Of a stretch of DNA of 64,000 bases, positions 9,026 through 60,028 are shown one piece after another. This stretch comes from Chrysomallon squamiferum. Lineage: Eukaryota; Animalia; Mollusca. The stretch is taken from positions 16,244,001 through 16,308,000 of the forward strand of contig CM022670.1 in assembly GCA_012295275.1 (NCBI GenBank), read 5' to 3'. Position numbers and translations under genes: made by a program. The notes beneath the pieces are model-generated. The model was given only the letters and a program-made list of their open reading frames with translations, was not told where the DNA came from and did not search any database. Every line of letters begins with the position of its first letter. Positions within the stretch are counted from its first letter, which is position 1.

Positions 9026-13512
<4,487 letters not shown>

Positions 13513-18712: not shown

Positions 18713-19130
18713 CAGCATGCATGCATAATACACAGACATGCACACATCCATGTTAATTGGGATGTTAAAAATTATTACCAAATGCTATTTTGTTCTTATT
18801 TTTTTATTTAAAAAAAAAAAATTGTTGTTTGTAAATATATTTTTATGTTATTTATTTTCCTTTACACTTCCTAATTTTTAGAACATAACATTTTCAAAAT
18901 ACAATTAATTTTCATATTGATCAAATATAATTTATTATTTATTCTTAGTAACATTTGCAGACTTTTTAATTTATTCATATTTATTTTCATTTTTTCGTTA
19001 CAAAAAACTACCATTTTACACAATTGATAGTGGTGTTCTGTTTTGTTTTAACCTTAAAGATTTAAAGATTTATATTGTTCATTTTCAAACAGTTATTCTG
19101 GTGTTTCATGTTGAGCATTTACTCATCAAA

Positions 19131-22100
19131 ATGACAGAAGTGTATATTGTTGGAAGAAACTTGTCAAAGCATGGCACTGTTTGTCTTCCACTCACTTCCA
19201 GTGCCATTATATTTGTCATAAAATACTGCCAGTCAGTTCCACTCAAACTTGTCATCGTTGATGACAGCAGCAGTGACGAGTGTGTGATACAGATGACTTC
19301 AGACTCGTTTAATAATTTGAATCACATATTTGTGAATGAAGTCTCTCTGCCACCACTGATAAAAAACTGTTCCTTGCCAGTCGTGTATGATTCTGATGCA
19401 GCAATGATTCGCTCTGGTTTGTGTTGTACGGTTAGACACATCATCAGCTTGGCCCATGCTCATGCTCCTGATGACAATTTTCAAGACCTTTTGGTGAGTT
19501 GAAAAAATTTGTAGTTATAATTAATTCATTATTTGCTTTCACTTTGAAAACTTATAATTTTTAGCAATTTGCATTTTGGATCCCATTAAAATTAAATTTA
19601 CCAAAAAAAATTATATTTCAAATGAATAAATGTAACATAAACGTTCCTATTTTGTTTTATCATTTTCGAATAAATAAACTGATCTATTTTTATTTAATTT
19701 CTTAAAGTGTAGATATGAGATTACTAAGCCATCTAATATGAACATACTTATGTTGTTTTTAAGTCATATATTTGGTTGAATTTATTAAGTTATGAATTAT
19801 TTACAGTTTCATTTTCAATTCTAAGAGTTGTTTAAATTGTTTACCTGAAGAAAATATACATATTTTTTATTTCAGGAAAAATAACTTACATTAGAATGTA
19901 ACTTGGAAAAATTAATTGAGAATTTGTTGAGTTAATGTTTTCAATTTTCATGAGCTACATATATTTTACTGAATATGTTTTGAATCAGAAAATGAAAATA
20001 ATATAGTTTTTTTAACACTTTTTTTATTGTTTATTTTTTTGTTATTGTAAACTGTGTTAGAATCAGTTGTTGTAATAAATGCAATCTGATAACTTACAAT
20101 GTTTTTGACATATTTATAAATGGACTAATTTTAATAATAATGTTGAATATGAAATATAATATTTCTAATATGTATTGTAATGCAAAACAAAAATGTTCAC
20201 TATAATTTCATAAAGTGTTGTATTTGTAATTGTTTTCAGGGATTTCGACAGGGAAGTTTAAGGATGTGTGCTGAGGTTAAGTGATTTCTTTTCTTCTCTC
20301 TTTTCTCAACTTTTACACTAAAAAAAAATTCAAACTATAAATGTGAAGAAACTATTGAAACATGTATATGAGGGCAGGCATTTAAAACCAAATACAATTT
20401 TTTTTTTACAGTTTTACTAATCTTTTCTTTCAATATATATATATATATTTGGAGAGACAATTATTGTCAGTTAGAGGAAGCTAGTGACAAATAGTAAACA
20501 ACCACACTCAAATGTCTAATTCACATTTACAGATTATGCTTTTATTTTAGTTAACATAGTGCTTTAAGCCATATAATTAGATAGGTTTTTTAACACTTCA
20601 TTTAATTTTGCTTGTTTAGATAGTTATTCTATAATTAATTTCATTGCTTTAATCAAGAAAATTAAATAGCTTTGTTTAATTTTGCTTTTTTAGATTATTA
20701 TTCTGTAATGGATATCATAACCGTTTTATATTTTTATTCTGTTTCAGGTTTCAGGATGGACAAAACTCTGTGAAATGGAGCTCAATACCAGCATTGCTTT
20801 GTTAATCAGACAAATCAGGTAAATATAGGGGAGATGGGACGTTTTTGTTTTTTAATCTAATCAACCTGTGCTTTCAAGATATATCAAAGTATTGTGGGCA
20901 AATGGAGCAGTTCCCAACTTCACATGTTTAATAGTTTACCCAAAACATTCTGTGTTTTAAAAATGATATAATGTTTATAATCAAGTTTAAATAAAATAAT
21001 TCATGCAAAAGTTTTTTTTTGCACTTTCATCAGAAAAATTTAGATTTTTATTCAGAGAATTTTTCTTCTTGAGAAAAACTTCAGATTTCCCAACACATCA
21101 TTAAGAGATTGGTGTAATATGTAATTGGTTGATGGTACCCACCTTTCAGGTTTTCTTACTGTGGAAGCTGGCAGAGGGAATGGCTCAGTTTACACCAACC
21201 CCCCTTTATATTACATTTTTATTTTCTTATTTACTCCTTTGATAATGTAAATACCTTACCAATGGTGGAAATCGGAGGGGACAGAGGGGTTGGTGAACCC
21301 TTACTTTTTAGTTTCCAGTTTTGAACTAATATGAAGTTAGATATATTTATTTTGCAAAGCAGTCATTATCAAATATCTATACATTTCAAACTGATTTGAC
21401 TCTGAAAATTAGCATACTGAGGTACTTTAAAACACAGCATGTTCCAACTGATGAAGAAATAAACAATAATTAAAAATACTCAGCATATGACATCTTCTTA
21501 CCTCTTCTTTCCAACCTCAGCAATCCAGATCGTAACATATCCCTAGTCCCTAAAACCCATTACTAAAATCAAACAATCAATCTGCCATAATATTTTTATT
21601 TTTTGTTTAAGTAAAAATTATCGTTTTTAATCAAACAACATATTCTGTCATTACTCAATACTTTGTTTATAAGATAACTAATTTTTATAGCTTAACTCTT
21701 GTCTCTTTTTTTTTATATTTAAGACAAGCATCTTCTGATGAACCAATAAACATCCCTAATGACCTTGTCAAGTTAGAAGTCCATTTGAAGACACTGCCAG
21801 TTGTTCACAACGACAACAAAATTAAAAGACGGTTTGTCAAGATGTTAAAGACAGATGTGCAAGACCCACAAAAGAAAGAAGATATATTAAAAAGCTGCAA
21901 CAGAGAAAACACACATTTGATACTTGAGAAGAATGAAATTTTTCCACATGGTATTCGCCAATACAGATGCAAAAAAATGAATGTCTTTGAAAAGGAGGAT
22001 AGTTCTATCAGTATAAATAAAAAAGAAAATATCTGTGATGGCATGTTGAAACTTTCACTTGATGAGGAGAACAACTCAGCTGATCTTGTGGCAGCCATAA

Positions 22101-25100
22101 TGAAACTGACTTTTTTGGATGTAGAACTAACACATCTGTATTTGGAAGGAATTGAAATGACAATTGCTGACATCATTGTATTTGTTTATTTTTACCATTT
22201 GATGGTAATTTATCCTTTATCGTCTTTGTTAAGCATAACATTATTTATTTGTCTGTTTTGTTTTCTGATATGTGTCTGCTATGCAGTGACTGGTTTGAAA
22301 TTCACATTCTGAAACATTAATTTTCTTTTGAAAACTATATTTTTTGAATTTAGATGTGACAGTTTAATTTGAATCACTTTAGTTAACTTTACACAATAAT
22401 TACTTTTAGTATATTAGTAATGTCAAAAATGGGACTTAATCAAACTTTATTTTACTTTGTCTACTATCATACATGATTTTTGAACCACATATTGTTCTTA
22501 TTAAATTTAATTTTTGTTTCTTGATTTTGTTGCAAGGAATCAATCCAGTTTAAGATTTCAGTCTTCAAAAACTATTTTCCAAAAGTTCTTCAATGGTTTT
22601 CTCATATATCTTCAATCAAACAAATACAAAATGCATCTGCCAGCTGCTGTTTCAAGTTGGAATCTCTAAGACTGGGTTTACTTGAATCTCATCTATCAGA
22701 TCTGAATGTCTGTCTTATCCTGCCAGAGATGCCTGCTAGTACAAATCAAAACATTGAACTAAGGTACTTTTAATGATTTTTATGTAATTTTTATTTAATA
22801 TCACTTTCTAATCTAGTATCCTATTAACCACTGTTAATATTTGTTGGAGATTATTTTGATAACTGATCAGTAGAATTTCATCTTTGTATAGAAATGAAAT
22901 GTCTTTGAAATACATATTCTGACACAGGAAATAAACATTTCCATTTTTTCCCTTAGATTTTCAGTTACAAAGTATTGTTAATGGCATCACAAATGCATAC
23001 AATTTATTTCATAAAAAAAAATATATATTCAGAATTTCAGTATCTGCTTTGAAAATTGTTTTTCATTTTTTAAATCTAAACAGCAGTTATTCTTGAAACA
23101 GCAAATAGCACTCAAATCCACTTTGTTTACAAAGAAGTAAACTGACTGTGTTGGAATTAAAATGTAGATAAATGGCCTCTTTTCATGTTATTTGTATATG
23201 CCAAGAAACCATCACTTGGATTAATATGTTCCAGAATTTAACATCATATATAATTTCTTTCTTATTTAATATCTAACATACATTTTTTCTGTCTTTATAG
23301 CAGAAGAAATAAGAGCAATTTCAAAGCCTACAAACCTGATGTTACCCATGTATTAAAAAAGATAAAGGTGATCATAATTTTTTTTTTCATCCAAGAAATC
23401 TGAAGTAATACTTGGAAATTATGTTGTTATTCTAAAATTTTAATATGCTGGATGTCTTTATTGTTAAATTAAAGAAATTTGCATTTATATTTAATATTCA
23501 GGGATTGAGAAGGGCATGGCATACCTAATAAAACCATGCCTGTCTAGGGCAGATTTATTGTAGACTTTAAAAAAAATTTACTGTTATTTTTTGACAGGAC
23601 AGTATGATTCATGTTCAACTGAGTGAACATCCATGTGGGAAAAATGTTGAACTTCCTTGGGACAAATTACCATCTGGTGTTCACCCTAGAGAAGGTGTGT
23701 ATATTATTGTGTGCACTTTTATATAAAACATTAATTAGTACTGATTTATATTCAATGAACTCTACTTGTGGCTGTATGAATATGAGGTATGATAAAATTA
23801 TTTATATCTCTTAAGTTGTTATTTTATTACTTTGCTTCATCTGTCAGTAAAATAACTTTTCATGTCACACTATTTAATAATTTGGTTGGTTAGAAGAGTA
23901 GGAAATAAGAAAAAAACAAAGATTGATCAATAAATTCAAAGCCTAACTACACTCAAGGGCACTAAAAGTTAAAAAATCAGTGTTTATTGATGATTTCAGT
24001 TTAGGACTTTAAATTGAATATGATATTTGGATAAAATCAATAATTGATAAATCTGGTCTTAATCAATGTTCATAGAACATTTTGATCACTTTCCAGTCTT
24101 GGGTATTGTTAAAGAAATTATAAACACATTTGTATAAGGACATTTGCACACAAGTTTTTTGTTATATTCATTTCTGAAATAAACCCAAAATATTTATACA
24201 GTTTTATTTCTTTATTATTTTTATTATGATGACACAATTTTCTATTTACAGACTGTTAATAAATAAAATAACAGATAAAAATAGCAAGATATAATTAAAA
24301 TGTTTTATGTATCCTTTAGCAAAATATTAGTATCCTTGCAAGAATAGAAATAACATTTTGTTAAACATTATAAACAGTGGAATGAAAGAGATGTTGGACA
24401 AATCATATGTGGGTTATTGATAGACTTCTGAACAAATATGTCAGTTACCAAAATAAAAACATTCATTCAAATACATTTTTATAACAGTTAAATATAAAAA
24501 TCCATCCCAGACAGCACAGAGTCACATAAATGCAATTTCTACTTAAACAGATGCTGTCTTGCATAAATCACATATTTAATGTGCTGTACTTCATGAATTA
24601 GTGGATTAACATTTATTTTGCAGGAACTGTCCCTGAAAAACGTGTTCGGCGAAAATGTCAACAACTGGAAAATTTAGTTACTGCTGTGATGAACATTGCC
24701 AAAAAAGGAAACATCATCATTGACTTCTGCAGTGGTGGTGTAAGTTGTACATAGATATTGTGTTATATGAGTTTAAAAACAAATGAAAATTTTATTCATT
24801 TTTTTTGTAAATTTCTTAATATTCACTCAAATGTTTATGAACTGATGTATGAGGATATTAGTTTATTACAAATAACATTAATGAACATTTTTTAATTCAC
24901 TATTGATTACATTACTATTTTTCAAAATGACATTTATGGTTTTATTACCTGAATGCCATAGCAAGAAGTTTTATCAAAATCATTATTTTTAAGTATAGAA
25001 AAGGAAAAAAAAAAAAAAAAAAAAAAAACATATTTAGTATAAGTTGTACATGGAGAAAAAAAAACTATTATTTTAATTTTTTTTTTTTTTCATTTGTATT

Positions 25101-27878
25101 TAAAAGGGACACCTTGGAATTGTAATAGCCTACATGTTACCTGACTGCAAGGTAATGTTTCACTTTTATTTTATTACTACTCTTTCTATTATTACAGATA
25201 TTATACATATTTTTTCTGAAATTTTGAGGAATTAAACATATTTCCTGATTATAATTTTTTTAAATTATTTTTAAAAAACAGATTTTGCTTTTTCATTGCT
25301 TAGTTATTTAAAGTTTTACATCTTCTAAATAGCTTTTGTAGCAGAAATCTAGATTTTTAATTGAGCATCACATAATTTTATGACTAAATTAATTAAATGA
25401 AGTGCCTTAATAAATTGAATAAATAAAATATTTCATTAAAAAATCAAGAAATCCTTGCAAACTTTCTGTGTTACACCTTTTAGGTCTACATGATCGAGAA
25501 CAAAGAAGAATCATTGATGAAAGCAAAACAGAGGGTTGATCAACTTGGACTGACTAATGTAGTGTTATATCAGGTAGAAAAACTAAACCAATACCCTACA
25601 GTAATAATTAATTACATCAATACAGTTAACATTCAGCCTTTTTACTCAGGGCCATGTAGTTTCCATATTTAAGCAAGAATCGTCATTTTGGAAACCCAAC
25701 ATTCAATGGTATGCTTGTATGCCATTACCATTACATGCACTTCCCAGCAAGTGGTGGTATGAGTGAAAATTACAAAATGATTGTTCATAGGTATACATTA
25801 GTGGAAGAATTACATTAGTTTAGTCTGTCAAATTATGTCCATGTCGTTGATGAAGAAAATGTTTGTAGGTAGGATGGAGGTAAAGAAATTTTCGTTGTTT
25901 GGATCCAGATTATTTACCAAATGCTTTCAGTGAATTTGATATTCAAGTAGTCTTCTTAAGGTAGGGAAAAGTCAGAGAGAAAATAGCATTTGGGCAGATG
26001 GAGAAACTGAGACTTTTGCATAATTTGGATCTATATGTTACTAAGATATACAAAAATGATGCAAAAGTGTCAGTTTAAAATTAAGCATGATGTTACAATT
26101 GGCATCAAGGTCTTTGAAGTGGCTCTGTTTTTTTGGCAAAAGTTATTCTAAGTTCTGAGAATTAAAATAGACTAATGCACACTATCTTTAAAATTCAATT
26201 TAATAATGTCATAATTTCCATTGCGTTAGCTTATTTAACTTATCCTTGTCACTTTCAGTGTAACCTGGAATACTTCAATGGTTATTTTGATATTGGTGTT
26301 AGCCTTCATGCTTGTGGAGTGGCCACTGATATGGTTTTACAACATTGCCTAGACAAGAAGGCTGCATTTGTTGTCTGTCCTTGTTGCTATGGCAGCATAC
26401 AGAAAACTGATGAAATTTCCTATCCTAGAAGTCAGCTCTTCACTGAGGCAGGAATAACCTACAAGGTATCATTCTAATAAAATTTTCTTCTAAAATTCCT
26501 TTTGTTACAGCTGCAGTAATAGTTTAAATAACCTAATTTTCTTTTATTTTGCTTTTCAAAGTATGTTATTAATTATAAAAAATTTGACAAAATAAAGCTA
26601 TGGTTATAAAATATTTACAAAACATTGTTAGAGGTTATTAAATAAAATATATTAACATTGTTCTGGGTCAGAAGCATGATAGAAATAATTTTTATTTGTT
26701 ATTAGTTTTAAAGCATTCCATTTGTCAGAATATGTCTGCCAATTCCTTCGTCAGAAATGAATGGCATGTAATTTATTTCTTAACCTTCAGATTGGACAGG
26801 CTATACCTATAGTGTCAGAACATGATCAGGTTAATACAGATGCCAGTTTGATTAACAGAACTCTATTTTTATCCTCATTTCAGGAGTTCTTAACTCTGGG
26901 TCATGCTGCAGATCAGACAGAATTCAATATAAAGCTGGAGAGCCAAGGTAATTTGTATGACAGTTCACATCTCATATCAACATTTATTATGATTCATCAG
27001 TGATCATTTTACAAATTTTATATATTTGACATGTTAAAGTTCGAAGATTGTCATTAATTACCAAGAATGTTTTTTTTTTAAATAGATTTCTCCAGGTTTC
27101 CAGAGTCCTATTGCCTAATTTTCCCATCTTTTCTTTCTTGTTACTATCTTTCTGTTACTTGTGAAACTTTTAGCTGTTGTCATATGGCTCTTCAGATATA
27201 TCTGTTCATAACTGTTTGCATTTCCAATTCATGAAGACATTATAGTTATGTCTATTGTTTTTGCTTATACTTTATAAAAATAAAAATAAGTTTCGTAATA
27301 AGAAAAAAAAAAGAAAAAGGGGGAGAAGGGAATTAACAGTTTAAGAACAAAACAAATGTTATTGTTAAGTCTAAATAATCCATGGTTTCATACATTCCAT
27401 TAAAACAATGTTAAATTACATTTCATTCATAGACAGACATTACTATTGACTATTTGGAAGGCATACAGTTTACTTGTATTTAAATGCATTGTTGCATAAT
27501 ACTAAATTTAGTTTTGTTGACAATACATTTAAATATAGCTGAAGAATAATAATATAATGGACTGGTTCTGCTTTAAGTGATCACTGGATAATAATATATG
27601 TAAAGATTTTAAATTCTCAGTATTAAAACTGCTTTTTAAGTCAGTAGAAAGGGCAAGAGATGATGAATATTTGATGAAGTAGGTACATACCAGTTGTTTC
27701 ATTAACAGGTTTAAAATATTTCTTTATTTCAGGACGTTACTGTAGCAATTTAGTGGACACAGACAGGGCACAATTTGCAAAAGAAAATGGCTTCCAAGTA
27801 AGATTATGTTCCCTACACCCTCCATCATGTACCCCAAAAAATAATTTGTTGATTGGGACCTCCTGCAAATATGAATGA
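19131..27878 (+). CDS. GSTCD: Glutathione S-transferase C-terminal domain-containing protein (GST-C plus class I methyltransferase-like domain)
   Basis: 13 coding exons: 19131-19493, 20240-20275, 20748-20818, 21724-22204, 22537-22763, 23301-23367, 23598-23694, 24624-24739, 25107-25151, 25484-25573, 26259-26465, 26884-26947, 27733-27878. Diagnostic motifs CAEVSGWTKLCE, VHNDNK, RKCQQLENL, IIDFCSGGGHLGI, SLHACGVATD, CPCCYG, CTPKNNLLIG. AATAAA at 27982. Confidence 0.93.
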
Positions 27879-29546
27879 TGGAGCAATGATGGATATAGTG
27901 CATAAATCACCATGACAGTTTAGATGCTTTGATAAATCAAAACAAACATAAAATGTTTTACAGTTATATTTTTAATTCATCAATAAAGAATGAACAAATG
28001 GAATTTTTGTGTATTTAATTTTAAGCTAATATAATAGTTGGATGTGAGTCATAGCAGGATTGAAAATTCAGCTGAGTTAATGTATGGTATTCTACAGAAT
28101 ATTTATAATAAAGATGCCTGAATACAAAAAAAAAAGAAAAGAAATGATTGCAGATATTAGTATAAAATAATGTTATGTATTTAACTGGAAAATGGTTCTA
28201 AGAACTACATGGTCAGGCAAGGAATGCAAGGAAACTATCCAATTAATATTGATGATACAACTGAAAACTGACTTCTGCAATCAAACCACAGTGCAGTGTT
28301 CTCATCCTAGTTATGTCTACAAACTATATTTCTTGAGATATATTATAATTTCTAGGTTTTTTTAGTTTTTGTCATTTTTGTTGCTGTATAAATTTAATGG
28401 TAAATAGTCAGTTTTACTGAGAATCTGAGAGGAAAACACAGCAGTTTTTGAAAACATCTACCATGTAAAATATTTTACAAAAACATTAAGAAAAAGTTCC
28501 AATAACAAATAAAATGAAAATATAAATGTAAAATTGCTATATATTCTTTTTTTACTAATAAATAGCATGTAGCATGTATCAAACGAAATCAATTCATTGA
28601 AAAAACCCTCTGAATAATCCTAGTTATTTCATTCAGTAACAAATTGATAACAAGCATAAAATTTAATTGATATATACTGACATTAAGATATATTAAACAG
28701 AGTTATATTTAATTTCATTGCAAATGGTTACACCACATAAAAATGAAATCGGAACATTAAGTTATAAAACTTGAAAATCTAAGCTATAAAACTTGTATAT
28801 TATACTATTCATTTTTTATATTATTATAATTTGTTTTATTACACTGATCATCATTTTCAAGACATGAATGTAATATTCTTTTACACATCTGAAGTCATAT
28901 ATACAGTTTGTCGTAGAAATCACATATCAGAACCCAACATCACAAAACAAATCAGAATTATAAAGTAACCACTGCATTAATTAATTCAACAAACTGACAT
29001 ATGTTAAGGTGTGATGAAAAAATCTCAAAATTTCTGCTGTTCTAGTTGCCAGGACAGGTCATATATTCACTGAGATACAATATACAAAAATCGAAATGGA
29101 AAGAACTTGGATAGGGGTGATTTGTCTTGATATGTGAGTATTGTTTTAGCATAGACCTAATTAACCATTCTCATTCTGAAATAAATTAATTAATTTTCTC
29201 TGTGGAATAATGATATATTCTGTATACTGAGATGAAATGATCAACAAACCACAGAAACCAAGATCAGTTACTTTTACTATGAAATTTCTCCCACAACTGT
29301 AGACAGTGTCTCATTGAAATAAAAATTGGACAGTTTAGAAGGAATTAAGTGTTTCTTCACTGGAGTACTCGTTAGTTTTTGTAGTCGCTTTACACAGATT
29401 GTCTTTTTCACTGATTCATGTTTCACTGAATTTGCAAATGTGTCCTGTTTAAAGTCTGATGGAAATTTTCTGAGGTAGTTGGTATTCTGATTAGAGAACC
29501 CTGTTTGTCCTTTTTGAAGGTTTGTCAACAGCATCCTCTGGACACT

Positions 29547-32500
29547 TCAACAACCCAAAATAAGACTTTTTGCCACTTCTGAATTTTTACATTTGGCTGA
29601 CATCATAAAATCAACCAAACGTTTTGACTTTTTATGAACAAAGTTAGAGATATCTGAAGACAGATTATCACTGTGATACTGAGTACATGCAGCTTTCCTT
29701 TTCACACTATTTGGAGAAGCGTCAAACTTTTGTATACCATTTAAAGACATTTTTGGAGAAACAGTTTCAGTTACAATTTTACACTGAGGAGAATTTTCAT
29801 ATTTTGAGCTGCATATTGCTGCCATTTTTATTGATGAACAAGGACTTGACAATCTCAGAGATGACAGTCGACTGACTGGTGACATTTCCAAATGTTTATG
29901 TGGTGTATTTAAATAATTTTCATCTGTTATAGCTTTTTCTCCCAAATTTCTGGTTTCCATGCTATCACATGCAAATTCATGGTTCATTTCTGAAGTCAGA
30001 CACTTTCTACTTAAATATGTTCTTTGGTTGGAATGCTCTGAGTTTACTACATAGGTCTCGCTAAGATTGGCATGTGCTTTTTTAAGTGAATGTTTGTTAT
30101 AGGCATTGTTAAAAGGTGATTTTGTACGTTTTGTTATTTGTTTAACATTCCTTTTTTGTGTTTCTTCTGCTAATACATCTTTTGGTCCTTTAATTTCAGT
30201 AGTCTTTATTGAATTAATTAAAACTGTTGAATCTGTAGAAATCCGTTTTAATGTTTTTTCACATTTAAAGTTACTCTTATGCAGATCCAGTTTCAAAGCC
30301 CCATTTGAACAAAACCAGTTTTCAGTACTTTTGACTTTCTCATATTTGTTTGAAGGTATCAAACCATTTTTTGAAATTTCTGATGGAAATTCCAATTTGA
30401 GAGGCTTGAGTGATGTTTTTTCTCCAGACCTCATTCTGTTTGATTCAGAAAGTATTTTTTCCTTTTCCCTGGAACATGATGTATCAGCAATAACATCTCT
30501 GTCATCAACTTTGTATTTTTCCGACTTTTTTTGACACTGCAGCGAAGATACACCATTTTCATTAAACGTTTGTTCTGCAGATGGATAGAAAACTGTAAAA
30601 TCTGGACAAGGGGAATCAAAAAAATCTTTTAATTGCTCATCATTCATTGACAGTTCAGACTGCTTAAACCGTTTTCTGGCTCTCAGTATTCGCCTTGATG
30701 CAGATGACTGTGGTGATTTAATATTTTGTTTCAATGGTGTCAAGAAACTTAAATTTATTTCCATCATGTTTTTTGGACAAGTACCACATAAAAGGTTACT
30801 GCTATTACCTTCTTCAATGATGTACGTAGCATCTGATTTAACAGAACTACCTGAACTTTTATTTAGACAAATATTATTTCCTGCAGATTGTATCGGATCC
30901 ATGTTTTTGGTGTCTTCCATCTCCCCTAATTTAATATCAGAAGTAGTAGAATGCACACTTTTTTGAAGATTTTGCTGTTGTTCAATAATCCAAGCATGGA
31001 CAAATTCCGACTTAGTTAACAAATAATCTTGATCGTCATGTGTCTGACATGTTGAATTCTCAGCAGAGGTTTGATATTTGACAGAATCTTCAGAGGAGCG
31101 AATGCTGTAGTCACTTTCACTTAATGGTTTCTTTAAGCTTGCAGAATGAGTAAGATTATCTGAATTTTCACTGCACCCGAGAATGTTGTCTGAATTTTCA
31201 TTGCAGCTGACATTGATGTCTGTATTTTCATCACAACTGACATTGTTGTCTGTATTTTCATTGCAACTGAAATTGTTGTCTGAATTTTCATTGCAACTGA
31301 CAATATTTCTTTCAAATGAAACAGATGATTTGTCCTGTGTCTCCACTGGTGTGGCTCTACAGTCTGTAATACTGTTTTCAGACAAACTAGATGATTTCTG
31401 TAACGAGTACCAAGACTTGCTAACCTGTTGGTCATTCTCATCCAACACTTTCTGAGAGACAGCATCAATTGATGCTGAATCAGTATTACTGAACTCTTCC
31501 CATGAGCCTTCACTTTCAGTACTAAGTGACGCCAATGTTTCTGCATCACTTGGATCATTATCTTCAACACAAATGAAGCTGAAGACTTTGGTACAGTTTT
31601 CTGAAAATTATTTTTTAAAAAAGAAGAAAAAAAGCTAAATGTTAAAAGACAATTAGGTAAATACTAAAAACTTAAATTTTTCCATTTTCAGAATTTGAAA
31701 AACAATTTGATTAAAAAAAAATTTTGGAAACTATTTTAATATCCCCTTTTTATTTCTTTTTATTGTGGAATAAATATTTTATGAAGAAAAAACAATTATC
31801 CATCACACAAACTTGATAGTGTTATAGATTATTTGTTATATAAGATATTTCGTAAATGAAACTTACAAGTGCTTACTATTTATCAAAACATATTGGACAT
31901 TTTCTAATCAATGTAACTTGTTGAGTAACACTGTTTGTAAGTCAGAAGTCTAATTATCAGTTGCATCAACATCCATAGTAACTTGTCACACTAAAAACAA
32001 TGAAAATATTCAGCTTGAAAGGTAACGACTGATGGTCTTGAAATTTATTTCAAACATAACTTACCTTCAGCAACTGATTCATTTAATGCTTCACTTGAAA
32101 ATGATTTATCAACCTGCAAAATAAGAAAAGATTAGTTAGCAACCATAACACATGCATGTCCCAGTGATTTGTTTATCTTTGTCTCAGGTTTGTTCTACAT
32201 AATAAATACACATTTAAACACACAGAGACATGCATAAACAACTTATGTCAATTAATAAATGTTAGTGTGTGTGTGTGTGTGTGTGTGTGCCTGTCTGTCT
32301 GTCTGGATGGAGAGAGAAAGACACACACATAAGAATAATTCCCAAGTAAAAGAAAAATACATGTATAGGTATTATTTTTGGAAGATGAAAAGATATTAGT
32401 CAGTACCCATTTTCCATAGTCTGAACAAAATATCTTTAAAGTATCTGCAGCCTGTGTTTTTTATTTGTGAGGAATCTTTTCTAATAGCACAAAATTTGTT

Positions 32501-34414
32501 TAAAGTATGTATATGTACACACATCATACAAACATTAAGACACTTTATAAAATATAAATAAAAACTTAAGATATATCATAAGCAAAACAAAATAATTTAA
32601 ATATAAACATTAAAAAACACTAACACATTCTGAAGATTTGTCATCAAGGAAAGTACATGTCAGAGTTTGGTTCCTTTCTGAAAATAGAATTTTAAAAAAT
32701 TATAAAATAAAATAAATGATAATACATCAAAAATTCAGATGCAGAAGCCAATAAATGCCATTACAACTGAAACTATGTTAACAATATCAAATTTTAGTTT
32801 ACATTTTTCAAAATCTGTTTAAATACCTATTCCATTGATATATATATCTCATATGTGTAATTTCTTTTTAAATTACTTTAATTTTCTATGGAAAACATTG
32901 ATGAAATTGATGAATCTATGCTGCTTTCAACACCAGGAAAGAGAAAATGGCATCAAACAAAATAAATCTGGTCTAGTGTTGATGAAACATAATTTTTTTC
33001 ATTAGTTTTTGTTAATAATTATCACCAGTATAGTATTATACATGCATGTATTTCCTTATTCACTGGTGGTCTTAAATTTGTAAGACAATTATTATTTATA
33101 TACCTCTTCGTTGTGTTGTTGCTAGCTTTGACAATCCAAATTGAGCTGGTTTGTGATTTTCCAACAAAACTAAAATATAAAAATAAACAAACATCATTTT
33201 CAAATCTTTTAAAAGTAAGATTTCACCAATATGACAAAGCACAGATACACCATCAATTTAAGACTGACAGTGACACTCTGGATCTGCTAGATAAAATTAG
33301 GACAAGGCATTTGAAATTAATTTTTAATTCATAAAGTGATAAACTGATTTTACTAACACAATCAGTACTAACAAAATAGTTTCCTTTAAGCTAATGTATT
33401 TAATCATTTAATTTACATTAATTACTTAAATTTAAAACAGTTCATTTTGCTTCAGATAAAATGATAACCTGGATAAACTTCAGAACAAAATGGTAATGGA
33501 AAAATCAGTGATATAAAATCCTAACCAGAACATTTAAATTATATACATTTATAATCTAAATACAAAATTTATATATACTGATAGTAGTACTGTGGGAAGA
33601 TTCAGATAAAGAAATCTTTAATGCATTTTTTTTTTTAAATTTCAGATGTTCACTGCATTTTGTACTATCAGATGACATTAATAACACATATAAATGTGAT
33701 TATCTGTTATAAAATTAATACTTGAGTTTTTAATAATCTTTTCTGAATATAAAATAAAACATTTGTTAGAACCATACCTCCACTGCTTATAACTTCAAGT
33801 GATGTGAGATCAATCAGGTCATCATGTAAACTAGGTTTTTGATACTGAAACATTTTAATAAAAACACAAGTCATTATGTATTGTTTATAACTTATTATAA
33901 TTATCACAAAATACATATTTTATCTATATTTATCCTATTATTTTTAATTCTGTGTAAGAAGTTTAAGAAGAGGATAAGAAATGTTAAGAAATTTTTTCAG
34001 AATGTATATTTTGTATCAAAATACTTTAGACCCATTTCAAAAAGGATAAACATAGTTGATGTCCATAGTAATAACTTTAGGGGCATAAATCAGTCTATCC
34101 ATAACCAAGATAGGTTTAAGATTTGTGCCAAAGGAAACTTTCACCTGAAATTAATGCTGATTAAAAAATACATAAATTCATTTTATTGTTTAGGCCATCT
34201 ATCTCCTCTTATGACAATTAATAAATAGTAAAATACTAACCATTAAAAATCTGAAATCTTTATTTTAACGTTCGACATGCTTGTTTTTTTTGGTGAAATC
34301 TCACAACCTTTACGGCTTTAGAATAAATTGGTTCATCCTCTGTTTATGATCAATGATGTAGTTATTACACCATCTTGATTTAAATATAAATATACACTGA
34401 TCAAATCCAAAAGC

Positions 34415-34457
<43 letters not shown>

Positions 34458-34871
34458 CATAAATAAATAAATAAATAAAATAATAAAAACAAAAAACAAA
34501 ACGAGGCAAACTGAATCTCTAATATCTATGCAGATCTGGAAGAAACACTTGACCTGAAAAGGCATTTTCTCTCTAACCTCTGCATAATTATCATATTTAT
34601 GGTTTTGTGTTCAATGCTGATACTTTTATTAAAACTTAAATGTTAACATTGTTAAACTTAAACTTAAAGTTGTGGACGGATGATTATTGGCTATTACTAT
34701 TAGTATTGTAATTGTTTATTAATGTGAAACATTATAATAAGGGTTTATCGGTTGTAATATAATTACCTTCTCGATAATAGCTTCCATATTAGTTCTAAAT
34801 CTTCGATCATTCTCTTTTGTTGATCGAATAAAGTTTGACAACAAAGTCATCGAACCAAATATCCCCGCCAT
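29547..34871 (-). CDS. HJURP: Scm3/HJURP-like CENP-A chaperone candidate (~797 aa: N-terminal Scm3 domain plus long S/T/K/N-rich disordered tail)
   Basis: Exons 34871-34767 (MAGIFGSMTLLSNFIRSTKENDRRFRTNMEAIIEK), 33844-33778 (YQKPSLHDDLIDLTSLEVISSG), 33169-33104, 32677-32625, 32113-32065 and 31600-29547. All have GT-AG ends and compatible phases leading into the 662-aa ORF frame. The N-terminus resembles human HJURP RRRFQRRMQRLIEKYNQP and yeast Scm3 NIISKYESIEEQGDLVDLKTGEIV (recalled sequences). Confidence 0.75.
31155..31305 (-). repeat. 30-bp coding tandem repeat, ~5 copies (N-[VF]-S-C-[ND]-E-N-[ST]-D-N)
   Basis: IVSCNENSDNNFSCNENTDNNVSCDENTDINVSCNENSDNILGCSENSDN; the unit ttttcattgcaactgacattgttgtctg recurs every 30 nt. 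Confidence 0.9.
34415..34456. repeat. (AAT)n microsatellite
   Basis: Direct reading of the sequence. Confidence 0.95.
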
Positions 34872-34879
34872 GATCAGCA

Positions 34880-35000
34880 GGTTCCTGTATCCTACATAAG
34901 GGAAACCCGATGCCGGTGTTACAGTTTGAAATTATTCAAGGTTTCAGGCTGCCCTTTTCAAACTGCGCATGCGCTGAAATGAAAAAATGCAGCTGCAATT
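34880..35000. promoter_or_regulatory. Promoter of the HJURP-like gene (head-to-head with MAT2B) with NRF1-type site and CHR-like hexamers
   Basis: TGCGCATGCGC at 34964-34974; TTTGAA at 34925-34930 (+) and 34957-34962 (-); CpG-enriched and within ~100 bp of the ATG at 34871. Confidence 0.5.
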
Positions 35001-40809: not shown

Positions 40810-41564
40810 ATTTTTTTTTTTTTTTGTGGTATTGTAGCATTCTGTTGAATTTGTTATAGAATTTTTAAAATAAGGTTATTAGTCACGTTTTAAAAAGAAT
40901 TGTCCCAGAAGTTTTCAAAAGCATATGTCTAGGTTTTTTTCCAGATTTTAGTACTAATTTACATTTTAAAAAATAAAATGTAACCAAATTTCTATCTTTG
41001 GAAAAAAGTGATTAAATCATATGCTAATCATTATTGTTGTTTTTGTTTTTGTTTAATTCAATTTGTGTTATGACTTGTTTTGTTTGTCATTTGCTGAAGG
41101 AGAAAACCTTTGCATGAATATTATAAATTGAATATTACTTTGGTAGTTTAAATCTTGGTTTCAACATATTTAAAAATACATTATGTTAAAGAATTATATT
41201 TTTAAATGATACTATAATGTTGCATTAAATATTTTTGTAAATAAGTAAAATATTTTTGTAAATAACTATCAGATATGTAGTATATTTAATTTTCAAAATA
41301 TATTATTTTCAGGACAGCAGTATTAGTGGAATTTTCCACTGGAGTGGAAATGAAGAAATGACAAAATACAATATGGCTGTTGCAATGGCAGAAGTATTTG
41401 GATTACCGACCAATCACATTCAAGCAGACAGAAATCCATCAGGTGGTGCTACACGACCTTACAATGCTAATCTTGATTCTTCCAGGCTGGAAAAACTGAA
41501 TATTAATCATAGGACACCTTTCAGAGCTGGAATAAAAAATGTCCTTGAGAAATATGCAACTTAA
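37425..41564 (+). CDS. MAT2B: Methionine adenosyltransferase 2 subunit beta (RmlD-like SDR), ~298 aa
   Basis: Exons 37425-37607 ([13 protein letters not shown]), 38700-38814 ([13 protein letters not shown]), 39773-39925 ([18 protein letters not shown]), 40525-40718 ([11 protein letters not shown]), 41313-41564 ([14 protein letters not shown]); phases consistent. Confidence 0.95.
39415..39720. repeat. Degenerate ~123-bp tandem triplication in MAT2B intron 2
   Basis: tagaaatat(c/g)ttaaaa...gtgcatcacatctt-like blocks recur at about 39419, 39544 and 39664. Confidence 0.6.
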
Positions 41565-49075: not shown

Positions 49076-50097
49076 TTACTCTCTAGACTGGTAAAACAGA
49101 ATGTAACCTGATTCAGAGTTTTTTTGCATGTCTGACGGAATTCCATAAAACTCTTCTATTTGCGAAGCATCAATTTTCTGAAATTGAAAAATGAAAGTTT
49201 TTTTTAACACATTGATGTTACAACAGCAAAATCAAGACAAGATACTTTAAATCTCTTCTGCATCTTCAAGCAATATATACTAATATCAAATATCACTTTT
49301 CTTTTACACATTTTAAGTTTCTTCTTGCTACATACAAAGGACTAAATGCAATTGTTTCATTTTTTAAACTGTATATAAAATTAAAATTACATTTCATATC
49401 TTTTCTTTTTTCTTTCTTTAATTTTATTATGATTCTTTAATTTTTTGTTTGTTTATTTTGATTCTTTTATTTTTTGTTTGTTTATTTTTATTCTTTAATT
49501 TTTCTTATTTTTTGCATCTTTAATGATCTGGAACAGTTTTCTCAAACACCACCAAAATTTTTGTTCTTGAACTCCTACTTCTGAACATTAAAGATGTATG
49601 CAAACTATCTTTTCATTTCTAATTTACCAGTAAAGAGAACAGATGTGTAAATGAAACTGAAAGATGACACTGGGCTTTAATGTTAAAAAAATGAAAAACA
49701 GCGTAATAAACAGTAAACAATAAATATGAAAAGTAATATAGTAGAAAACATGAATATAATGCAATAAAAAAAATTATATATATATATATGCATAAAATGT
49801 AATAAATGATAAACATGAAATGATAACAGAGAATAACAAAATGTGAAAATGATAAAAATGACTCCAGCTGTCATAAATTTGAAAGACATTTCTAAAAGAC
49901 TTACATCAACAATATCATCATCAAAGAGTAGCCAGAAGCCATGGCTTTTCACAATGCTAATATAATGTCCTCTGTTAGGACCACTCCCACAATGCACCAC
50001 CACAGCAACAAGATCATACATTCTTTCAGGATTGCAGGCATCGTCAGACTGCAGAGAAAAATACATTATCATGATTATATGTGTGTGTGTGTGTGTG

Positions 50098-50147
<50 letters not shown>

Positions 50148-52376
50148 ATATATATATATATTTAGCACCTTTTTCATACTAAGTAAGTAAAAAAGATATG
50201 GATATAAACATAATGGATATAAAATAAACAAGTCTCCTCAAAAAACTGTTTAAAATAAAAAACAGAATAACTACATAAATAAAACAGAAAGTTGCATAAA
50301 ATGTATTACATAGACAGAAACATTTAGCAAGAGAACAAAACATTAAAATTTAACTTGTTACAAAAATCTACTGATACATTACAAAAAAGAATGAAAATTT
50401 GTGTTAAAATATTGAAAGTTTAAAATGTTAAATAACAACACACTTACTGTATTGAACAATCTCAGTTCCAAAGGAAACACAACACGATAAGAAACCTTTA
50501 TGTAGCGGCTGTACTGTTCCATGTATTTAAATCTCTTTAAATGTAAGGCTAAAATTTGTGGTAATTTCTTCACTCGCATTCTAAAATAAAAAAATTAAAA
50601 ACTATGTTCTTTGTACCATTTCAATCCAATTTTGTCTTCTTAATTAAATATTACTGATACTATTACTATGGTATTTTTTATTTGTTTCTACATTATACTT
50701 TGTTTAACTAGAGTGAAAGCTGATAAGTAATTTTTTTTAAGGAAATTAATGTTAACAAATGGATATTCATATTGTAAATTATTAAATGTTATATGAAACA
50801 GTTTAGTACTGATAAAAATATTTAAAAAGCTTATCTTTTCATGATCTAAGTAGGCTGCCAAAATGTTTCTCAAAACCAAATAACCTAACCACCATAATAT
50901 AGCAAGTGTCCTGTTGACTAATGCTATTTAATTATTGACAGACGTCAATATTTAAAAATAATCTGAACTGCATGATGTCTACTTTTAGCTTGTTCTTGAA
51001 TCCGAAATGTTCTTGATGTTTATTAGTAAGTTGATTTCTATGGGAGATGTTTAACATTCCACAAGCTTGCTTTTTAAAACCTATAAAAAATTCTCATGAA
51101 ACTGTTTATTTTGTGCTGAATTTTAACTTTATACTGAACATTCCTATTTTTTAGATTATTATTATTTTTTTTTTAAATCAAAATATTGATGCTAATGTTT
51201 GTCTAATGGTTTTTGTTTAAATACCTTTTCTGGGCTTCCTGCTTGCTGCAGCATACTTCACAATAATATTTGTGTTCAGCACACAGTGTTTCTGTATTGC
51301 TGAATCCACGTAAGCAGTGGGTAATGGATGTATTCTGTTCCACATCAACTGAGAGATCCAGGAAATCCTCATCCTTACTACTGACCTGTCAAAATATATT
51401 CTCTAGATGTCAATATCTCTGCTGGTTAAACACTAGATTTTATCTAATGAGTACAGACAATTTTAGGACTTTTAAAATACTGATTTAAAAAAAAAAAATT
51501 ATTTCATTATTTACATGCACGGGAATCTTTTCTATTAATATGTATCTGGTTGAATAATATGTATAAAAGTTATTCACAGCCATCAATTCCTTTGTTAACA
51601 AAATTGAATCAAATGACTTACAGTTTCACAATTCAAGCAACGAGTTTCATTTGTCAATGTCCCTTGAAATATTTCATGCACCCATGTGGCATCAGCTTTA
51701 GGTTTGTCATCATTGGAAGGTTTAGGTTTATTGCCAAGTTTTTCTGCTAAAATACACCAATATACACGGAAATAGAAACTTTATCTTCTGAAGGAAACAG
51801 TCAAACTCACTGTTTATCATTTACATATGCAATACAAATAGGCTATTCTGAAAAAGTGTAATTACACCAACATATTTAATTCTTATAAAAAGTAAAATTT
51901 ATGTCAGTTTCTAATAATTTTACATTAGAATAAAAGATATATCAATAACATAAAAGAAAAATCTGGCACTATTCAAACATACAAAATGTTACAATAGTTA
52001 AAAACACAACATTCTATTTAGAAACTGATAATTATAGTAATGATAGAAAATAAGAGACTGCTGATAATGCTGTTAAAGATATGCTACCTTGTAAGAGATC
52101 AGCGACAGTATTGAGTAGATAATTCAAAAATTCATGAGCATCCTGTTGCATGTAGTTATCAAACTGCTCTGAAAAAACAAAAAACAAATATTTTGTTATA
52201 TCAGACTTCACATGGCTGGATGATTAGATTAAATCATTTTCCAAACAAAAACTCTACGAGATCAGACTTATTTTCTAATGAAAATCAATGATAAATATTT
52301 TCTCAGTTTTTGATGATTGTTTTTTTTTTTTTTTCCTGAGTGTGTGTGTGTTTATGTGTGTTACTTTAAGTCATTT

Positions 52377-58775: not shown

Positions 58776-60028
58776 ATGACGAACACAAAAGGTTATCGTC
58801 GTGGCACACGGTACATGTTCTCCCGACCATTCCGGAAACATGGCGTTATCCCGTTGTCCACATACATGAAAATCTACAAGAGAGGAGACATTGTTGATAT
58901 TAAGGTATGAATATGTCTTACTTGTGGAAAATTAAATTTTAAAATAAAAACTTTTCTCAGATGTTATTTTCAACCTTACAGAATCTCCAGTATTTGGAAA
59001 CTTTTATAGAAAAATTCAGAATTAATCTGTACAGTAATATAAATCCTAAATTTTGTTTTTTCTGTAGTAAATGTTGATGATTCCTAATCATCTTCTCTGC
59101 ATATAGTTGACTTTTTTTCCTAAGTCGTACAAAAGCAAGTATTATCCTAATCTTACACTTATTCTAAATTTTACCTAGTGTCTTTTATTGCATCATAATA
59201 TTTAATGTAAAAAAGGTGAGATGCTTACCAAAATGACATTTAACATCTGTTTAAGTACATTTATAATTTTTAGGGACATGGTGCTGTACAAAAAGGAATG
59301 CCTCACAAATGTTACCATGGGAAAACGGGACGTGTGTATAATGTTACGCAACACGCAGTTGGTGTCATTGTCAACAAACAAGTAGGGTGTGTGTTGCATA
59401 TTTACATAAAAGAATATTAACTGTTAACAACAAAAAAATCTTTTTCACGATTGTTCATTAAAATAGATAGAAATGTATAAGTTTATATTTGAATGAAAAT
59501 TTAAAACCATTTGATTTGGGAAGTGTATTAAATACTGATTCATGCAAATTTGCTCCATGTTGTTTTATAGTAACCGGATTATACCCAAAAGAATTAATGT
59601 CAGGATTGAACACGTGAAACACTCCAACTGCCGTCTTGAATTCTTGAAACGTGTTCATGAAAATGAAGCTAAAAAGAAGGAAGCAAAGGCAACCAATACA
59701 TGGGTTTCGTGTAAACGACAGGCAAGTACATTTTCAAATGTTTTCTTGTTTGAAATCTTTGGCATGTTGAAGAACATTGTGTATTTTATGACATTAAAGC
59801 ATTTAAAATTTCTGTGTATTGAAGTTCTGTTGCTAAACCCTTTCTTGAAGACCTAGCTTGATCTTGGAGTATGCTTTGTGTCCTTAATATTTTAGTTCAT
59901 GATTAAATGAATAATTTTAAGATGTTCTGTGTTTTCAGCCTAAAGGACCCAGGAAAGGACATTTTGTTAGCACTCGATACAACAAACCAGAGATGGTGGT
60001 ACCTATTCCTTATGAGATCATAGCTTGA
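58776..60028 (+). CDS. RPL21: 60S ribosomal protein L21 (eL21), 160 aa
   Basis: Exons 58776-58904 ([23 protein letters not shown]), 59274-59386 ([17 protein letters not shown]), 59571-59721 ([13 protein letters not shown]), 59939-60028 ([18 protein letters not shown]). AATAAA at 60049. Confidence 0.98.

Follow-up and report, generated by a model that had tools for sequence, protein, structure and literature searches.

A transcribed gene with an N-terminal Scm3 domain in the gastropod Chrysomallon squamiferum

The locus: gene model, transcripts and neighbouring genes

The window analysed here, the whole 64,000-nucleotide stretch of Chrysomallon squamiferum contig CM022670.1 (assembly GCA_012295275.1, positions 16,244,001 to 16,308,000), carries on its minus strand a spliced gene whose first exons encode an Scm3 domain. 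Other genes in the window were recognized from Pfam matches. These include: a Smad gene at 13512-9026 on the minus strand (MH1 exon 13012-13512, MH2 exon 9029-9436), which we take to be of the Smad1/5 type; a multi-exon gene at ~18900-27900 on the plus strand with a Methyltransf_32 exon (26166-26474), presumably GSTCD-like; an RmlD substrate-binding exon at 41262-41561 on the plus strand, assumed to be MAT2B-like; a ubiquitin hydrolase (UCH) exon at 49686-50237 on the minus strand, which looks to us USP12/46-like; and a ribosomal protein L21e exon at 59539-59853 on the plus strand. The Methyltransf_32 gene converges on the Scm3 gene, the two 3' ends facing each other, and stops ~1.4 kb short of the last open codon of the latter. 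At the edge of the window, positions 1-2900 are GC-richer and strongly skewed, and on the minus strand they hold open frames of low-complexity charged protein with no Pfam match in the two frames scanned.

The Scm3 gene is read on the minus strand as six exons that give 797 codons without an internal stop. Exon 1 (34871-34767; 105 nt, aa 1-35) runs from the ATG to the donor AAG|GTAATT, starts with MAG and encodes the long Scm3 helix, closing in I-I-E-K. Exon 2 (33844-33778; 67 nt, aa 36-57), bounded by an AG acceptor and a GT donor, supplies the Tyr of the K-Y pair and a D-D-L-I-D-L strand. Intron 1 is in phase 0, falls between K35 and Y36 and has canonical splice sites. The coordinates and phase-0 join that the sequence-only reading had given for these two exons are correct in the window sequence, as is its proposal of three more small exons leading in frame into a ~2-kb exon. 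Exon 3 (33169-33104; 66 nt, aa 58-79) encodes an extension, F-G-x-x-K-L-x-x-T-x-R, common to lophotrochozoan orthologues. Exons 4 (32677-32625; 53 nt) and 5 (32113-32065; 49 nt) are linkers: the acceptor of exon 4 is given by loose RNA ends in three of four runs and its donor was placed by frame and homology, and exon 5 was placed by strong splice sites and frame. Exon 6, taken up to the first stop (31600-29547; 2054 nt), is mostly disordered and rich in Ser, Lys, Asn and Glu, with the motif SDAET at aa 131-135. That stop is an in-frame TGA at codon 798 (29549-29547), past which 89 further codons stay open until a TAG (29546-29277) and include an S-T-P-x-K ... T-L-S-T motif from codons 858-862 onward.

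Transcript evidence comes from RNA contigs of four runs, all of one study, in which 19-38% of sampled words of positions 29500-35000 are present. These contigs were aligned to window positions 33085-33875, and their loose ends were compared with the window sequence. Exon 2 is covered in all four runs, and the loose ends extending past it are the 3' end of exon 1, again in four of four. The transcripts thus do join these two exons, and the 34767/33844 junction, which had been put forward for confirmation in RNA, is present in every run of this one study. The joint of exons 2 and 3 (33169/33778, seen as CT..AC on the plus strand and hence a GT-AG intron on the minus strand) appears in three of the four runs, and loose ends past exon 3 match the start of exon 4, also in three of four. 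Junctions 4/5 and 5/6 are placed by the reading frame and by the colinear alignment to the Gigantopelta protein described below. One contig, from run X2, joins exon 1 to exon 2 and then continues into intron 2 (33638-33777); the RNA of this run is partly spliced or intron-retaining. At window position 34794, in exon 1, one of the four runs has another letter, a silent change in the third position of codon R26.

The Scm3 domain and its orthologues

The encoded helix carries regularly spaced hydrophobic residues (F25, M29, I32, I33) and is closed by K35-Y36, past which lies an acidic, short hydrophobic strand (D43 D44 L45 I46 D47 L48). These elements had been likened in the sequence-only reading to yeast Scm3, for the spacing KY-x7-DL[IV]DL, and to human HJURP, for the pattern RRF..M..IEKY.xP; both likenesses agree with the sequences of the PDB chains. 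Yeast Scm3 (2L5A; 2YFV chain C) shares the spacing K-Y-x7-D-[LV]-[IV]-D-L, and human HJURP (3R45 chain C) shares R-R-F...I-E-K-Y-x-x-P and, like the window protein, is long and disordered with the domain at its N-terminus. Yeast Scm3 differs in its length of 223 aa and in the position of its domain at 92-141 (PMC13001451, Table S1), and it has D-x-G, whereas here the domain is N-terminal on a protein of ~800-890 aa. In exon 3, the F, G and L of the motif are invariant in 10/10 aligned orthologues. The window protein carries V58 at that invariant Gly, with G57 adjoining; with respect to DxGxL, G57-x-L59 is present and the Asp is absent. Residues after aa 80 are 58% S/T/K/E/N/D/Q, and ~84% of the sequence windows there are disorder-like by a charge-hydropathy proxy.

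When exons were scanned singly against Pfam, exon 1 had one match, Scm3 (PF10384), at 13.1 bits (E 0.082), below the family cut-off of 24.3 bits. Against a lophotrochozoan profile of nine orthologues, built without Gigantopelta, the joined window model scores 79.8 bits, compared with a maximum of 9.7 bits among 1829 scored shuffles (2000 made). Single exons score 30.1 (exon 1), 17.1 (exon 2) and 16.5 bits (exon 3), and these three rank highest by profile among the 1973 six-frame open stretches of the window. Among 181 candidate acceptors, the real second exon gives 59.7 bits versus 38.2 for the next best.

A ten-row profile searched against the PDB returned eight rows, of which the first three are 3R45_C, human HJURP (E 6e-7); 2L5A, the yeast Cse4-Scm3-H4 fusion (E 5e-5); and 2YFV_C, K. 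lactis Scm3 (E 0.022). For the remaining five, E>=0.63. With the single sequence, Scm3 chains also rank first but weakly (E 1.5 and 1.6). A PDB search with the whole protein gave two rows, which were judged to be chance. The hidden Scm3/HJURP domain claimed from the letters of the window is thereby upheld by significant profile matches, with HJURP/Scm3 chains as PDB ranks 1-3.

Orthologues were reached from outside the domain. Searched without it, the large exon matched two proteins from 7606 candidates in a set of 5.8 billion proteins (375-1196 aa): Gigantopelta aegis LOC121376433 (E 2.5e-40) and one unnamed partial protein. The C. squamiferum protein itself was absent from the large-exon matches in that same set and length range. 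LOC121376433, labelled 'uncharacterized' and carrying a PF10384 annotation precomputed in the database, reaches 36.1 bits with the Pfam Scm3 model and passes the cut-off. Because this protein was found via the large exon, without the domain, its link to Scm3 is not circular. The complete model aligns colinearly with it, starting at residue 1 (280/781 identical, or 36%; E 8e-108), with 49/78 identical (63%) over the N-terminal domain, and the two share SDAET as well as mid and C-terminal blocks. They differ in that Gigantopelta has R-Y in place of K-Y, in V58 at the otherwise invariant Gly, in length (960 aa there versus 797 or 887 here) and in the TGA that here precedes the C-terminal block.

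The first 75 aa of the Gigantopelta protein, searched against 1.84 billion representatives, gave 12 matches at E<=0.001: the query itself; nine proteins of molluscs, Lingula and Owenia that match at their N-termini; and two unrelated repeat proteins. The latter, P0007 (cystatin repeats) and P0010 (DUF5666 repeats), belong to other families and were dropped as false matches. The nine new matches come from Ylistrum, Physella, Haliotis, Patella, Argopecten, Lingula, Owenia, Biomphalaria and Solemya; all nine match Scm3 in a Pfam scan, five of them above the cut-off. The Lingula match is XP_013387541.1, and the Biomphalaria cluster includes XP_013081743 and KAI8798300.1, which are candidates of PMC13001451. 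The named matches amount to one Scm3-domain gene per species. Six molluscan Scm3-domain proteins (P0003, P0005, P0008, P0013, P0021 and P0022, from scallops, abalone, Solemya and limpet) have source labels of 'uncharacterized' or 'hypothetical', and several lie below the Pfam cut-off. Among the 47 candidates of a word-index search, the Gigantopelta domain recovered nothing but itself, and a scan of metagenome contigs for related loci gave 366 pattern matches and no confirmed one. A domain tree of 13 rows is poorly resolved; the grouping of the window and Gigantopelta proteins has values of 83/88 and is not starred.

The fold was predicted with the Gigantopelta orthologue as a stand-in. The AlphaFold2 model of its domain, of modest confidence (mean pLDDT 70.6, pTM 0.31), has a helix at 7-33 and strands at 41-43 and 48-51, in agreement with the one helix and two short strands that PMC13001451 describes for the scm3 domain. 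Foldseek with this model gave no match at E<=0.001, its first rank being 2YFV_C at E 0.56, and a wide VIA fold search gave generic helices only (Z<=3.1). These fold searches add little because a single helix with two short strands is not distinguishable by them. A ranking by hydrophobic moment in the orthologue did not single out the domain.

Motifs outside the domain and the in-frame TGA

Two short motifs recur outside the domain. The model has an exact SDAET at aa 131, and 11/13 orthologues have it too, including bivalves and the annelid Owenia; it is absent in Lingula and Biomphalaria. A C-terminal S-T-P lies 37-54 residues from the end in 9/13 orthologues and is followed by a stretch of the type T/S-L/I/M-S-T-I. 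Of the four orthologues without S-T-P, two may be partial (Owenia, labelled as such, and Solemya, at 518 aa), and the other two, Physella and Lingula, look complete. The shuffle control for either motif gave 1-5 of 2000. Exon 6 shares two further blocks with Gigantopelta, at aa 405-455 and 680-712, and neither the large exon nor the tail has a match in Pfam.

As we read it, S-T-P-x-K matches the consensus for CDK as well as the Polo-box motif, and the part downstream matches the Plk1 target consensus. The acidic SDAET is tentatively read as a likely point of phospho-regulated contact, and the S-T-P-x-K near the C-terminus as a likely CDK-primed Polo-box dock, the latter by analogy with the Ser-Thr site S653/T654 of human HJURP, to which the molluscan S-T-P is likened by proposed function only. 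In human HJURP, according to two reports (10.1101/2024.02.23.581696; 10.1101/2024.02.23.581399), this C-terminal Polo-box site supports Mis18 binding and CENP-A loading. Among the dipteran CAL1 rows of PMC13001451 Data S1, a stretch S-D-V-x(0-2)-E-T (Aedes) lies just past the scm3 domain and is, by eye, slightly SDAET-like.

The TGA at codon 798 stands 60 codons ahead of the C-terminal motif, and the frame past it is open for 89 codons to 29277. Given how often stops occur locally, an open run this long would arise by chance in ~0.2% of cases. The open tail aligns with the C-termini of orthologues P0001, P0002 and P0006, and over aa 841-880 it has 18/40 residues identical to Gigantopelta. Together, the open run and this identity favour recent translation of the tail. 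Most likely, then, the TGA comes from a sequence error or an uncommon allele, and the normal product has 887 aa. The length of ~750-800 aa foreseen in the sequence-only reading agrees with the 797 codons to the first stop, but the conserved open frame beyond it means that the usual product may instead be 887 aa.

It is improbable, in our assessment, that this true HJURP orthologue really ends at codon 798, whether by a fixed truncation, a nonsense allele or a leaky stop, leaving the protein without a C-terminal Polo-type motif or in two forms. The TGA is present in the window sequence, and no convincing intron removes it: the best donor among 220 GT-AG pairs has 6/9 consensus letters. A scan of contigs for DNA beside the TGA gave 0 matches. 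The complete-looking Physella and Lingula orthologues, which have no C-terminal S-T-P, also fit an early end. Against it stand the 89 open codons and their likeness to the Gigantopelta tail. The context TGT-TGA-AGT also differs from leaky stops of the UGA-CUA type. One broader possibility, less likely than not and drawing on the human analogy, is that molluscan HJURP carries a C-terminal Polo-kinase module (the S-T-P-x-K dock and a Plk1-type site) together with an SDAET conserved between limpets and scallops and present in an annelid as well. In that case the licensing of CENP-A loading by Polo would date back to the ancestor of bilaterians, and in the snail, where the TGA precedes the module by 60 codons, forms of the chaperone that have the module and forms that lack it would both be made.

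Identity of the protein and its proposed role

Taken together, the locus holds a gastropod gene that is spliced and transcribed and has its Scm3 domain at the N-terminus; it very probably encodes an Scm3/HJURP chaperone that would load CENP-A. The joins of exons 1-4, the homology of the domain and the orthology to published lophotrochozoan candidates are established by the data above; CENP-A deposition and a preference over H3 would follow from family membership. By its profile matches, K-Y pair, acidic strand, disordered remainder and search link to published members, the protein is an Scm3/HJURP family member and not of the tetrapod subtype. Tetrapod-type HJURP has an HJURP mid domain and C-terminal repeats. 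The large exon of the window gene, which matches no Pfam family, is for that reason without tetrapod-type mid or C-terminal HJURP domains.

The proposed mechanism would follow the human and yeast structures (3R45, 2YFV, 2L5A) and PMC13001451. The chaperone would take up new CENP-A-H4 dimers for loading at centromeres. Its helix (aa ~11-37) would lie antiparallel along the CENP-A alpha-2 helix, where K35-Y36 could pin it by contacting a conserved acidic residue of alpha-2. The D-D-L-I-D-L strand would cap, or pair with, loop 1, and thereby provide selectivity over H3. In this way CENP-A-H4 would be kept soluble, told from H3-H4 and handed to centromeric chromatin. The remaining 700-800 disorder-like residues might, more speculatively, carry targeting and timing signals.

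Two other explanations would change this identity. If a generic amphipathic helix with a short strand resembled Scm3 by coincidence, this would account for the weak PDB matches of the single sequence and for the lack of a Foldseek match at E<=0.001, but even the weak searches place Scm3 chains first, the profile searches (nine-orthologue profile and PDB) are significant, and three separate exons match parts of the profile in order and are joined in RNA; we regard such a coincidence as scarcely credible. Somewhat less remote, though still quite unlikely, is an Scm3-domain paralogue with a changed job, such as serving a germ-line CENP-A paralogue or H3-H4 storage, with another gene loading the centromeres. 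Loss of DxGxL and of the Gly at the family's invariant position would fit such a change. K-Y and the acidic strand are nonetheless intact, the named matches give one gene per species, and PMC13001451 reports mostly single matches per deuterostome genome and a relaxed DxGxL in animals. The reading as a family member that would act as the CENP-A chaperone is therefore preferred.

The family has already been reported in other molluscs, and the present gene is a further member. The caution in the sequence-only reading that recent remote-homology surveys might cover this lineage was well placed: the 2026 preprint of Hollis et al. (PMC13001451) describes scm3 domains across most lineages of animals, with zebrafish and C. 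elegans members validated by experiment, and its gastropod, bivalve, annelid and brachiopod candidates include Biomphalaria, Pomacea (apple snail), Crassostrea, Mizuhopecten, Lingula and Capitella. As described there, DxGxL is an ancestral motif. These candidates resemble the window protein in their N-terminal scm3 domain, K-Y, acidic strand and long polar tail, and comparison with the window N-terminus gives 30/80 and 31/79 identical residues. In the four text supplements of that preprint, Gigantopelta, Haliotis, Patella and Physella are absent by name, as are SDAET and TLSTI. Literature searches on Scm3/HJURP with Lottia, or on invertebrate kinetochore evolution, found no paper; among the matches listed for HJURP, mollusc and CENP-A, none is listed as concerning molluscan HJURP, and the vent-snail papers among the matches listed do not name HJURP. 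By title and the start of the abstract, none of the papers on exon/intron conservation concerns the structure of this gene.

Which protein loads CENP-A in invertebrates is answered in outline by PMC13001451, and this gene adds one point in favour of Scm3/HJURP being conserved throughout animals. For the snail itself, the result is an RNA-backed gene model of what would be an essential centromere factor. Its lasting value may lie in the two short conserved motifs beyond the domain, as candidate sites of regulation that can be tested in this lineage.
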